UHGV virus genome: UHGV-1377021
Origin: a virus
Length of the DNA stretch: 23,643 bases
Direction: 5' to 3' (one strand)
In this document: positions 2,614 to 5,625 of the stretch, piece after piece
How positions within the stretch are numbered: position 1 is the first letter of the stretch
Layout: each line of letters starts with the position of its first letter
Made by a program: the position numbers and the translations under genes
Notes under the pieces: generated by a model
The model's database searches: none
The model's input: the letters and a program-made list of their open reading frames with translations, nothing else
What the model was told of the DNA's origin: nothing

Positions 2614-2798
2614 ACGCCACAATTCAAACGATACCAGAGCTTCTTATCCAGACACGAGGCAATCAGACCGAAGTGGCGAGGATGCTTTCCTGCGCAAGAG
2701 GAACAGTGCTCAAGTACAACCGAGACAGCAAAGGTGAGCGTCACGTAATAGTTAACGGCGTCCTGATGGTCAAACAGGGCAAGAGGGGAAGACGATGA
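2610..2798 (+). CDS. ninH: NinH-like small DNA-binding protein
   Basis: 62 aa, IPELLIQTRGNQTEVARMLSCARGTVLKYNRD...VIVNGVLMV, resembling lambda NinH as remembered; overlapping start/stop with neighbours. Confidence 0.6.
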   Translation: MNATIQTIPELLIQTRGNQTEVARMLSCARGTVLKYNRDSKGERHVIVNGVLMVKQGKRGRR

Positions 2799-3283
2799 GC
2801 ATAAGAGAACTAAACCTCACCAAAGAACAGCACGAGTGGCTGAATGGCTGGCTTGAACTGTGGGGCGCATGGGTTTATTCAGGTCGTCTGGAAAAGCGCA
2901 TGAGCAGCGTAATAGCGAAGTTCATGGAGAGCGTAGAGCCGGGAAGAATTATGACAAGGCCAATGTGTAATGATGATGATGGAATGTTGATTTCTCAGGT
3001 CGTCGATTCCGTCATGTACATTGACAAGAAAGCCTTTGGCATCCTCCTCAGCTACTACGCTCATGGATCTTCCAAGCACGCCATTGCATCTTACTATCAT
3101 CGTGTCGCAAGACCTCGCAAGATGTTATGCCGGGGCGGCGGGCGCATTCAAAAACCATCGCTCGCAACCTGTCGCCGGGAAGTTGACGAAATCCTCAATG
3201 CCTCGTTGTTTATGATTTATCCGGTTCTGGATAGTGCGTTTAAAAACCGGAAACGTGTAGAGAAAATTAAACATGTAGCATAG
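2795..3283 (+). CDS. Q: Late-gene antitermination protein Q (phage 82/21 QuuD type)
   Basis: 162 aa with the WLELWGAWVY...RPMCNDDDGMLISQVV pattern typical of the Q82-type family; last gene before the late promoter and lysis cassette. Confidence 0.75.
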   Translation: MSIRELNLTKEQHEWLNGWLELWGAWVYSGRLEKRMSSVIAKFMESVEPGRIMTRPMCNDDDGMLISQVVDSVMYIDKKAFGILLSYYAHGSSKHAIASYYHRVARPRKMLCRGGGRIQKPSLATCRREVDEILNASLFMIYPVLDSAFKNRKRVEKIKHVA

Positions 3284-3287
3284 AACG

Positions 3288-3325
3288 TGTTGACATCATT
3301 GAGCAAATGAGCAACACTATTCACA
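3288..3325 (+). promoter_or_regulatory. Candidate Q-dependent late promoter (PR'-like) with qut region
   Basis: Exact TTGACA -35 hexamer at 3290-3295 directly after the Q stop; the -10 element is not clean (CACTAT/TATTCA candidates at 19-22 nt spacing). Confidence 0.4.
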
Positions 3326-3331
3326 TAAGCT

Positions 3332-3370
3332 GCCGTTAGTGACTCTTAAGTTGCAACGGTGGCTTTTTTT
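3332..3370 (+). terminator. tR'-like intrinsic terminator just downstream of the late promoter
   Basis: CCGTT(3333-3337)/AACGG(3355-3359) stem with a long loop, followed by GGC and a T7 run (3364-3370). Confidence 0.45.
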
Positions 3371-3448
3371 GTTTGCACAACAGGTAAGAGCATTGAACCC
3401 GCAGACCTCGCGGAATTGGTGAAAGGTGCCGCGCAGTGCTCTTATCGT

Positions 3449-3576
3449 TGTGGTGAAGCTCAATGGCGAGCTAGCAGATAGGCGACAGTGAAAATACTAG
3501 TCATGTAGCTGACCGCCGCGCGTACTGCAATCGGCAGCGCACCGATGGAAGCCGGTTCGATTCCGGCCGCCACAAC
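3449..3576 (+). ncRNA. tRNA-like element (degenerate or interrupted; not a canonical tRNA)
   Basis: Near-consensus T-arm GCCGG-TTCGATT-CCGGC at 3551-3567; 7/7 acceptor pairing between 3449-3455 and 3568-3574; D-arm-like GCTC-AATGGC-GAGC at 3458-3471; anticodon-arm-like stem 3530-3534/3542-3546. But there is about 58 nt extra between D-arm and anticodon arm, no U33, and no CCA. Confidence 0.3.
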
Positions 3577-3585
3577 CCAAACTGA

Positions 3586-3635
3586 GCCGTAGCCACTGGC
3601 TATCCTGAATTCATCAGTGATAGTTACGCTGCGGC
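3586..3635. repeat. 50-nt imperfect palindrome/hairpin centred near a GAATTC site
   Basis: Outer 8-bp stem GCCGTAGC/GCTGCGGC (one G-U), inner 9-bp stem CTATCCTGA/TCAG(T)GATAG with a 1-nt bulge, 5-nt loop ATTCA; no U-tract follows. Confidence 0.5.
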
Positions 3636-3821
3636 CTTCTACACATGACCTTCGTGAAAGCGGTGGCAGGAGGTTGCGCTAACAACCTCATGCCGTTTTG
3701 CCCGTGCATATCGGTCACGAACAAATCTGATTACTAAACACAGTAGCCTGGATTTGTTCTATCAGTAATCGACCTTATTCCTAATTAAATAGAGCAAATC
3801 CCCTCAATGAAGGGGTAGAGC

Positions 3822-4025
3822 ATGTACCGTATGGACAAAATCAGAGAATGGTTCAGTTACAGCTTCGGAGGACTGACTGCGATGGGTGGCATTCTCTCCC
3901 TGAATGACTGGGCTGTCATCATTGGTATTCTTTGTACTGTCGGCACATTTGGCATCAACTGGTACTACAAGCGCAAAGAGCGCGAGGACAGATTGAATGG
4001 CAATGTCACCGGCACTACGAAATAG
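3822..4025 (+). CDS. Holin, small class II/pinholin-like, with a dual-start motif
   Basis: 67 aa beginning M-Y-R-M (two Met separated by a basic residue, as in the lambda S107/S105 dual-start arrangement); two hydrophobic segments, the first Gly-rich ([13 protein letters not shown]), and a charged C-terminus; directly upstream of and overlapping the endolysin. Confidence 0.7.
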
Positions 4026-5496: not shown

Positions 5497-5518
5497 GGTC
5501 GCTCAGGCGGCCTTTTTT
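5497..5518 (+). terminator. Intrinsic terminator
   Basis: GGTCGC/GCGGCC stem (one G-U) with 4-nt loop TCAG, followed by TTTTTT (5513-5518). Confidence 0.5.
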
Positions 5519-5625
5519 ATTGCCATTACAAAAGCCATTCCCTACAGAGTGGCTTTGATAATGGCTTATACCCTACACGGGATAACTTAACTGATATCCC
5601 TTTTAACGGATAAACGGAGCCAACA

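Follow-up and report, generated by a model that had tools for sequence, protein, structure and literature searches.

A conserved RNA stem-loop between tRNA-like cassettes and the lysis genes of lambdoid phages, including lambda

What is the role of a large imperfect hairpin in the untranslated leader of a lambdoid late transcript, where it follows a tRNA-like element and precedes the lysis genes? The hairpin occupies positions 3586-3635 of the window, by which we mean the whole 23,643-nt stretch of the viral genome UHGV-1377021 that was analyzed. The window contains the part of a lambdoid prophage that carries late control and lysis, in the order Q, pR'/tR', tRNA-like cassette, hairpin, a second terminator-like hairpin (T2), and holin, with lysozyme and Rz after holin. 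The hairpin thus lies between Q/tR' and holin. Placement of pR' and Tr' after Q is based on homology to the annotated HK75, and the leader ends in a conserved S-type leader with a small hairpin at the holin ribosome-binding site. The features of this region are as follows, where d is the terminator score described below.

2795-3283, + strand: Q-type late antiterminator gene (Pfam PF06530, E = 1.2e-24)
3327-3370, + strand: tR', the first late terminator, a hairpin with U7, homologous to the annotated Tr' of HK75 (d = +28)
3376-3452, + strand: long stem P1, CACAACAGGUAAGAGCA ... UGCUCUUAUCGUUGUG, with a hypervariable tip; a covarying version is CACAAAGGGAAGAGCG/CGCUCUUCCUUUUGUG
3447-3576, + strand: tRNA-like element with closing stem GUUGUGGUG/CGCCACAAC, D-arm-like GCUCAAUGGCGAGC, and perfect T-arm GCCGGUUCGAUUCCGGC
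3580-3585, + strand: single-stranded spacer AACUGA, nearly invariant over 72 variants; proposed endonuclease cut zone
3586-3593, + strand: 5' strand of the outer stem, GCCGUAGC (RNAfold)
3594-3596, + strand: 5' side of the internal loop, CAC (CCUAA in Klebsiella phages)
3597-3608, + strand: 5' strand of the inner stem, UGGCUAUCCUGA; the Klebsiella lineage differs at the apical pair only
3609-3613, + strand: apical loop AAUUC; GAATTC at 3607-3612 corresponds to the lambda EcoRI site at 44972
3614-3626, + strand: 3' strand of the inner stem, UCAG-U-GAUAGUUA, with bulged U3618
3627, + strand: unpaired C, 3' side of the internal loop; C/U polymorphic, with U in 98 of 249 loci, the commonest variant of the family
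3628-3635, + strand: 3' strand of the outer stem, GCUGCGGC (RNAfold)
3636-3640, + strand: pyrimidine tail CUUCU, the 3' edge of the module; four downstream contexts start after CTTCT
3665-3702, + strand: T2, a terminator-like hairpin, GGCAGGAGGUUG/CAACCUCAUGCC plus GUUUUGCC, also found in hairpin-less HK022-type leaders (d = +10)
3822-4025, + strand: holin gene, the first of the lysis cassette (Pfam PF16080, E = 4.4e-21)

Fold and strand of the hairpin

RNAfold folds the hairpin sequence, GCCGUAGCCACUGGCUAUCCUGAAUUCAUCAGUGAUAGUUACGCUGCGGC, into ((((((((...((((((((((((.....)))).)))))))).)))))))) at -26.7 kcal/mol. The outer stem has 8 bp with one U.G pair, and GCCGUAGC/GCUGCGGC makes G-C at 6 of these 8 positions. 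A 3x1 internal loop, in which 5' CAC faces a single 3' C, leads to an inner stem of 12 bp, arranged as 8 + 4 around bulged U3618, with two G.U pairs and a loop of 5 nt. An earlier note on this DNA had described the outer stem, internal loop, and single bulge in the same way, while the 9 bp it gave for the inner stem fall short of the 12 found here.

The hairpin is real and is more than a product of chance. Dinucleotide shuffles of its sequence gave a mean of -11.2 +/- 2.4 kcal/mol (z = -6.4), and 0 of 200 were as stable. The same fold was recovered from the 81-nt context 3570-3650, the interval for which the earlier note had suggested RNAfold as a check, and it is retained in the minimum-energy fold of the entire 458-nt leader. 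We also scanned 23,594 frames of 50 nt, taken on both strands at every second start position across the window. The exact frame 3586-3635 is more stable than every sampled frame (best other, -26.1; mean, -8.7; 0.1 percentile, -22.5 kcal/mol), and the overlapping frame 3587-3636 folds at -23.7 kcal/mol. An Rfam 15 scan of 3200-3900 at E <= 10 returned no covariance-model match on the hairpin. A coding explanation was rejected since no ORF of more than 37 aa touches the region.

The fold is strongest on the strand that is transcribed. In the sense of the late transcript (+ strand) the RNA folds at -26.7 kcal/mol versus -19.2 kcal/mol for the complement, a gap of 7.5 kcal/mol that arises because U3590.G3631, G3598.U3625, and G3599.U3624 turn into A.C on the other strand. 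Folded as DNA, the two strands reach -10.8 and -8.9 kcal/mol. This pattern points to an RNA-level element of the late-transcript strand rather than the palindromic protein-binding site that had been offered earlier as an alternative. A DNA palindrome that binds a dimeric protein or extrudes into a cruciform would be in keeping with the imperfect inverted repeat around GAATTC and with a + strand DNA fold that exceeds its shuffles (z = -3.7). However, 3 of the 20 pairs would be G.T, and thus A.C mismatches on the opposite strand, the DNA folds are weak, and the 3x1 loop and the bulge shift the arms out of the dyad register expected of a site for a dimeric protein. Klebsiella relatives carry extra loop bases on one arm only, which would disturb the dyad spacing still more. 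With the strand asymmetry of the RNA fold also favoring RNA, we regard a DNA-level role as highly improbable.

Cassette linkage, module edges, and conservation

The variable cassette upstream of the hairpin spans 3376-3576. P1 and the tRNA-like closing stem have GUUGUG in common, and the closing stem covaries with that of lambda, GUUGUGCUG/CAGCACAAC. The perfect T-arm (3551-3567) is followed by an acceptor-like 3' strand (3568-3576) that ends 9 nt 5' of the hairpin, which bears out the earlier description of the hairpin as immediately following a tRNA-like element. ARAGORN with default settings, with or without introns, found no tRNA adjoining the hairpin and made an intron-containing call (3448-3579) at a relaxed threshold only. 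Rfam gave a sub-threshold partial match to the tmRNA T-arm upstream of the hairpin, at 20 bits versus a gathering score of 47.

The linkage of the hairpin to such cassettes is the most informative result of this analysis. The sample consisted of 203 late leaders with an S-type leader, of which 173 contain the hairpin and 30 lack it. Directly upstream of the hairpin, all 173 contain tRNA genes or a P1/P2 pseudo-tRNA cassette: real tRNA genes in 72, with tRNA-Asn(GUU) and tRNA-Thr(UGU) in 71 leaders and Met-Arg-Gly-Thr in one, and a structured pseudo-tRNA cassette in 101. None of the 30 hairpin-less leaders, which are of the HK022 type, has tRNA genes or a pseudo-tRNA cassette. The corresponding Fisher P of about 1e-36 overstates the evidence because the genomes are related and not independent. 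Nevertheless, the linked leaders comprise at least 8 classes of upstream cassette, and the downstream contexts number 4. The register is also maintained, with the CCA end of tRNA-Thr 7 nt 5' of the hairpin (UAACUGA) and the pseudo-tRNA end CACA-A-CCC-A-AACUGA aligning in the same register with the tRNA-Thr end CAGC-A-CCA-U-AACUGA. The hairpin is not obligatory, as Klebsiella phage Kp4882-1 has a cassette but no hairpin.

The hairpin is part of a module, AACUGA + hairpin + CUUCU, that is conserved in lambda, HK75, CUS-3, BTP1, phi458, and Klebsiella phages. The spacer of the module, (C)AAACUGA or UAACUGA, is unpaired and rich in A, with a single U that is missing from the Klebsiella variant AACCGA. 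On the 5' side every upstream cassette joins at (A/C)AACUGA, and on the 3' side homology to other leader types stops right after CUUCU. The first of the four downstream contexts, that of the window itself, is the lambda/P22-type leader with T2. In the phi458 type, CUUCU runs into a U3-7 C-rich sequence, and the holin start follows about 65 nt later with no other terminator between. The Klebsiella type has a canonical terminator about 70 nt 3' of the hairpin, and the fourth context is a single case. Comparison of Kp4882-1 with Klebsiella phage 6 shows that exactly the module is missing, with AAA at both edges, while at another locus (L007) a recombination joint falls within the hairpin loop.

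This module has in part been labeled before, at the level of DNA. CUS-3 annotates the 241 bp from hairpin to holin as "bsq3; boundary sequence," and the window aligns with this bsq3 (L002, 1842-2082) from the hairpin to the holin start. The hairpin makes up the first 50 nt of CUS-3 bsq3, and mosaic joints cluster at its edges, a feature it shares with the bsq of HK620/CUS-3-type phages. In contrast to the element described here, "boundary sequence" is an evolutionary label for the whole 241-bp leader and is silent on RNA structure and tRNA linkage.

The 538-bp leader matches 253 phage records and is also found in prophages of 1,400 of 5,426 complete E. coli genomes. The hairpin itself occurs in hundreds of E. 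coli, Salmonella, and Klebsiella phages, to which the phage records add Shigella. In phage lambda it lies at about 44951-45000 of NC_001416, where there is no annotation, and its tip GAATTC is at 44972-44977; position 44972 is that of lambda's EcoRI site 5. A scan of one genome per species found it in Escherichia and Shimwellia only, plus three metagenome-assembled genomes labeled as unrelated taxa, which may be mis-binned. By inner-stem pattern, the scan of species representatives yielded 6 loci only and no new divergent lineage.

The palindrome that the earlier note expected in close relatives is present, including in lambda and the Klebsiella phages. We collected 283 hairpin matches in 273 loci, representing 72 distinct variants, with 249 E. 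coli-type instances used for the substitution tally and 269 for stability. When the variants are placed on the proposed structure, standard pairs make up 97% of cells. Compensatory changes, which had been proposed as a check, are found in two independent double changes. In the Klebsiella lineage C3588-G3633 has become U-A, and at one E. coli-type locus, the relatives of which have the single disruptive C-to-A, C3605-G3617 has become A-U. Wobble pairs are replaced by Watson-Crick pairs at two positions (U.G to C-G or U-A, and G.U to A-U), the former being U3590.G3631, which is upgraded in some relatives. The Klebsiella hairpin is about 80% identical, folds at -22.9 kcal/mol, and has indels in its apical and internal loops alone. 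Its inner stem matches that of E. coli throughout the lower 11 bp, tandem G.U pairs and bulged U among them; a test for extra conservation of this stem in Klebsiella was not significant (P = 0.19).

The four commonest substitutions (98, 41, 37, and 14 loci) all have a ddG of 0, and 3 of these 4 are at unpaired positions, two of them in the apical loop. Beyond this, the microvariation tells little. Observed compared with possible substitutions showed no significant structure-neutral bias (P = 0.18), and common variants did not disturb the structure less than rare variants did (P = 0.38). In the copy of lambda itself two pairs are broken, and the fold reaches -16.2 kcal/mol. Because of these nonsignificant P values and the broken pairs of lambda, we consider structural selection on the hairpin to be modestly supported, and covariation likewise gives it modest support. 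A relaxation of the hairpin alongside degenerate cassettes was considered and rejected: mean stability is equal across cassette classes, at -23.6 to -25.7 kcal/mol in each (269 instances), and lambda proper is a single outlier.

Terminator character

The tail that follows the window hairpin is CUUCUACACAU, which lacks the U-tract of about 7-8 nt expected of an intrinsic terminator, and a terminator consensus scan of the window did not flag the hairpin. The same scan of phi458 did not flag it either, a result that is uninformative because the scanner cannot handle interrupted stems. We additionally calculated a d'Aubenton-Carafa-type discriminant, d, with modern energies and an approximate threshold of 0. 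The score is -5 for the window hairpin, -11 for the lambda copy, and -13 for the Klebsiella copy, versus +11 to +20 for phi458-type copies, +10 to +18 for T2, and +28 for tR'. The phi458-type tail, CUUCUUUUUUCC, is found in about 50 loci with a T-run of 3 to 7, and a U-tract of the expected kind occurs in these phi458-type relatives only; the lambda tail is CUUUUAC. At best, the window hairpin is a weak terminator that is followed by a proper one, T2, and the earlier statement that it has no downstream U-tract and is not a simple intrinsic terminator is right for this copy. With a U-run behind it, as in the phi458 context, this stem has the look of a real terminator.

The lambda tR' (the 6S RNA terminator) and T2 resemble the hairpin in that they share its strand and its untranslated leader, and Q-modified polymerase transcribes through all three. 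They differ from it in being compact and having true U-tracts (d = +28 and +10, versus -5 for the hairpin). T2 occupies 3665-3694 plus GUUUUGCC and begins 30 nt 3' of the hairpin, and the hairpin, as opposed to T2, is absent from leaders without a tRNA or tRNA-like cassette. The earlier note did not mention the lambda copy, the module flanks, the U-rich-tailed context, or T2 30 nt downstream.

Could the hairpin nonetheless be a leaky intrinsic terminator, either of a tRNA "moron" or as one in a late series of tR', hairpin, and T2? It would then halt Q-less polymerase that had passed tR', keeping the lysis genes silent in lysogens, and be ignored by Q-modified polymerase. The G+C-rich base of the stem abuts the tail directly, as in terminators, and is followed by the conserved CUUCU in all four contexts. 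In host tRNA operons, trailer terminators sit shortly after the tRNA, and the hairpin is 7 nt past the tRNA. The lambda tail CUUUUAC and the phi458-type tail, with its d of +11 to +20 and its position as the sole terminator before holin, also agree with termination. Against this stand the unflagged tail and negative scores of the window, lambda, and Klebsiella copies, the interrupted 50-nt stem, which is unusual among intrinsic terminators, and the variable length of the phi458-type T-run. Since a canonical terminator-like hairpin lies downstream, T2 in the window and another about 70 nt away in Klebsiella phages, the hairpin would be redundant as a terminator, and leaders without the cassette have T2 and not the hairpin. 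We therefore consider a leaky terminator somewhat unlikely as the main explanation. Literature searches on t'R2, lambda Q-S hairpins, HK620/CUS-3 boundary sequences, Stx-phage tRNAs, and lambda end-mapping yielded nothing usable. Tandem late terminators are said to have been described by Luk and Szybalski in 1983, in work that may instead concern the J-b region.

A proposed processing role at the cassette boundary and its rivals

Taking the observed structure, strand, modularity, and cassette linkage together, we infer that the hairpin may be a cis-acting RNA stem-loop of the Q-dependent late transcript that serves processing at the cassette boundary and stabilization of the message, and we assign this reading a probability of roughly 40%. 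The hairpin would mark where, between tR' and the lysis genes, an inserted tRNA or tRNA-like cassette ends on its 3' side. The tRNA or pseudo-tRNA would be excised from the long late RNA, with RNase P cutting on its 5' side and an endonuclease, most likely RNase E, cutting the single-stranded AACUGA spacer. This would leave the hairpin at, or a few nucleotides from, the new 5' end of the holin/late mRNA, where it could shield the processed 5'-monophosphate end against further RNase E attack; it may also insulate folding of the cassette from the leader. As for its origin, it is probably a terminator-type trailer hairpin of a captured tRNA operon that has kept some terminator character. This reading would account for the absence of the hairpin, but not of T2, from leaders without a cassette, for the conservation of spacer and register, for the dispensability of a U-tract, and for the specificity of the pairs to RNA. 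A processing site or stability determinant at the RNA level, as the earlier note suggested, is the natural reading of an element that is strand-specific, noncoding, and cassette-linked, and the present results support it in part.

A stable stem-loop directly 3' of the cut is common among RNase E sites, and mRNAs such as ompA and the processed T4 gene 32 mRNA are protected by stem-loops at their 5' ends. The hairpin resembles these 5' stabilizers (the ompA 5' UTR and T4 gene 32 mRNA, whose RNase E site is just 5' of its hairpin) in lying just 3' of a candidate cleavage zone at the head of a long mRNA. Unlike in those cases, 3-6 nucleotides could stay unpaired after a cut in the candidate spacer, perhaps too many for the 5' end to be protected. 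AACUGA is also a poor fit to the preference of RNase E for U at +2, and AACCGA lacks U altogether. Nor would a role as a 5' cap explain the conserved CUUCU tail, which suits a terminator better. Also to be set against cassette-boundary processing are the Kp4882-1 exception, the weak lambda copy, the lack of significant structure-neutral bias, and the relatedness of the genomes behind the linkage count.

Published accounts touch on excision of the cassette without deciding the matter. According to the phage L genome paper, the tRNAs of late operons might be cut from the late mRNA or made from a promoter of their own, and which of these applies is not known (PMC8022706). The BTP1 transcriptome paper treats the two tRNA genes separately in its listing of the most strongly expressed genes and has the lytic operon start right after them (PMC7067206).

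The spacer need not be the place of the cut. RNase III could instead cut the interrupted duplex of about 20 bp, parting the tRNA cassette from the lysis/late mRNA, with parallels in the E. coli metY-nusA-infB leader and T7 inter-cistronic sites. In the metY operon the RNase III site comes directly after the tRNA, and the hairpin is likewise directly past a tRNA and specific to one RNA strand. RNase III calls for roughly 20-22 bp of mostly continuous dsRNA, and the 8 + 12 bp of the hairpin, with a 3x1 loop and one bulge, are of this size. Its 20 bp form two coaxial helices with a small asymmetric internal loop and would fit the RNase III dimer, for which an in vivo study gives about 22 bp (PMC6212723). 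The sites of metY-nusA-infB, T7 (R1.1-type), and lambda (sib/N-leader) share with the hairpin a duplex of about 20 bp, a small asymmetric internal loop, and a place right after a tRNA in the leader of a phage or operon, but they have no sequence similarity to it, its flanks are conserved, and its cleavage is putative. Conserved single-stranded flanks would be superfluous for RNase III. Furthermore, E. coli K-12, the source of mapped RNase III sites, is without the element in the late region of DLP12, the one cryptic prophage checked, so the K-12 maps of RNase III and RNase E sites are not applicable. An RNase III site is in our estimation rather improbable.

A different view is that the hairpin has no present RNA function. 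It would then be the decayed terminator stem of a captured tRNA operon, persisting as a "boundary sequence" whose homology allows swaps of cassettes and lysis modules. Its place at the 5' edge of the 241-bp bsq3 of CUS-3, the mosaic joints precisely at both hairpin edges and once in the loop, the substitutions without significant structure-neutral bias, and the ability of Kp4882-1 to manage without it are all consistent with such a relic. On the other hand, stability has been held over about 70 variants and every cassette class, and several wobble upgrades accompany the two compensatory double changes. In the Klebsiella lineage, where identity is about 80%, indels are found in loops only and the fold still reaches -22.9 kcal/mol, and in phi458 the hairpin is retained where both flanks have been replaced. 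We consider a relic or recombination linker unlikely.

The hairpin is best placed as an unannotated member of a familiar class, the trailer and processing hairpins at tRNA-mRNA junctions. Like the Rho-independent, RNase E-removed trailer hairpins of tRNA operons, it lies 7 nt after CCA, has a G+C-rich base and a pyrimidine/U-rich tail, and follows a single-stranded spacer open to endonucleolytic cutting. Unlike them, it is inside an antiterminated operon of more than 20 kb, and transcription must therefore run through it; its U-tract is degenerate (CUUCUAC), and its 50-nt stem has an internal loop and a bulge. It is notable chiefly for its presence in lambda and for its strict coupling to tRNA-derived cassettes. 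A broader and more speculative reading, to which we give a similarly low probability as to RNase III cleavage, is that hairpin and cassette form a "tRNA-punctuation" processing module of lambdoid late operons, that of lambda included. On this reading, real and degenerate tRNAs would be kept as RNase P/RNase E signals that trim away the pR', qut, and tR' leader, with the hairpin as a 5' cap dedicated to the mature lysis/late message. A protein might in addition recognize the sequence of the inner stem's lower 11 bp.

Many lambdoid, P22-like, and Stx-type phages have tRNA genes at the head of the late operon. The hairpin is a conserved, mutable element exactly at the tRNA/mRNA junction, so the question of tRNA excision is directly testable in lambda, HK75, and BTP1. 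The module lies just upstream of the lysis genes and could conceivably bear on stx toxin expression. In lambda itself, one of the best-studied genomes, the leader contains about 210 nt of unannotated, structured, tRNA-derived RNA.

The tRNA-like cassette upstream of the big hairpin

A modular structured leader that includes a "tRNA-like element" is common to lambda, HK75, CUS-3, and Klebsiella phages. In the window this cassette lies upstream of the big hairpin, the 50-nt RNA stem-loop at 3586-3635 (+), and it consists of two parts, the stems P1 and P2; across 3376-3576 it is covered by no Rfam family and no tRNA call.

3376-3576, tRNA-like cassette; lambda counterpart at about 44790-44947 of NC_001416
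Cassette part one, P1: long stem CACAACAGGUAAGAGCA ... UGCUCUUAUCGUUGUG with a hypervariable tip
Cassette part two, P2: acceptor-like closing stem GUUGUGGUG ... CGCCACAAC, enclosing variable content
3376-3381, upstream copy of CACAAC
3447-3452, GUUGUG
3571-3576, downstream copy of CACAAC

Both stems covary among phages, with CACAAAGGGAAGAGCG/CGCUCUUCCUUUUGUG as an alternative version of P1 and GUUGUGCUG/CAGCACAAC as the lambda version of P2, and in some phages the tip of P1 contains T-arm-like hairpins. An unusual tRNA set was found in the late leader of one IMG/VR locus (L203), where four tRNA genes (Met-CAT, Arg-TCT, Gly-TCC, and Thr-TGT) upstream of the big hairpin replace the usual Asn and Thr pair.

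The GUUGUG at 3447-3452 could pair either with the upstream CACAAC, which closes P1, or with the downstream CACAAC, which closes P2. Each of these pairings would preclude the other, as in an attenuator. Alternatively, both CACAAC copies could be direct repeats resulting from insertion into a phage tRNA gene.

Polymorphism and recombination at the big hairpin

The hairpin module (AACUGA, the big hairpin, and CUUCU) shows a precise presence/absence polymorphism between Klebsiella phage Kp4882-1 (L135, about 1515-1545) and Klebsiella phage 6 (L127, 2000-2085). The polymorphic segment is about 66 nt long with AAA at either edge, while the two leaders are homologous elsewhere and both carry tRNA and pseudo-tRNA cassettes. 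Another locus, L007 (minus strand, around 5473), is a recombinant with unrelated sequence in place of the 5' half of the hairpin. Since its joint is located in the apical CCTGAATTC of the big hairpin, the loop has acted as a crossover or deletion end-point.

Terminator-like hairpins and other stable folds

3665-3702, T2, compact terminator-like hairpin (GGCAGGAGGUUG/CAACCUCAUGCC plus GUUUUGCC), 30 nt downstream of the big hairpin
3800-3815, small hairpin CCCCUCAAUGAAGGGG directly 5' of the holin start
7649-7698 (+), stable 50-nt local fold, -26.1 kcal/mol
5517-5566 (both strands), stable 50-nt local fold, -24.5/-24.1 kcal/mol
12380-12429 (-), stable 50-nt local fold, -24.6 kcal/mol

Lambda also has T2 (about 45034-45071), as do HK022-type leaders, which are without the big hairpin, and T2 has the appearance of a general second late terminator. 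The phi458-type leader, represented by phage phi458 (L126, 2007-2075) and about 50 IMG/VR loci (L137 and others), has no terminator besides the big hairpin, which here scores as an intrinsic terminator: it is followed by CUUCU with a T-run of 3 to 7 and then by C-rich sequence, with about 65 nt on to the holin start.

The hairpin before the holin start is the counterpart of the CCCCUUAUUGGGGG structure 5' of lambda S, although the holin in the window belongs to a different family (PF16080). The three 50-nt local folds listed above are also exceptionally stable and could represent terminators or structured elements of another kind. Between the end of the Rz gene (4934) and the downstream fold at 5517-5566 there are about 580 nt.
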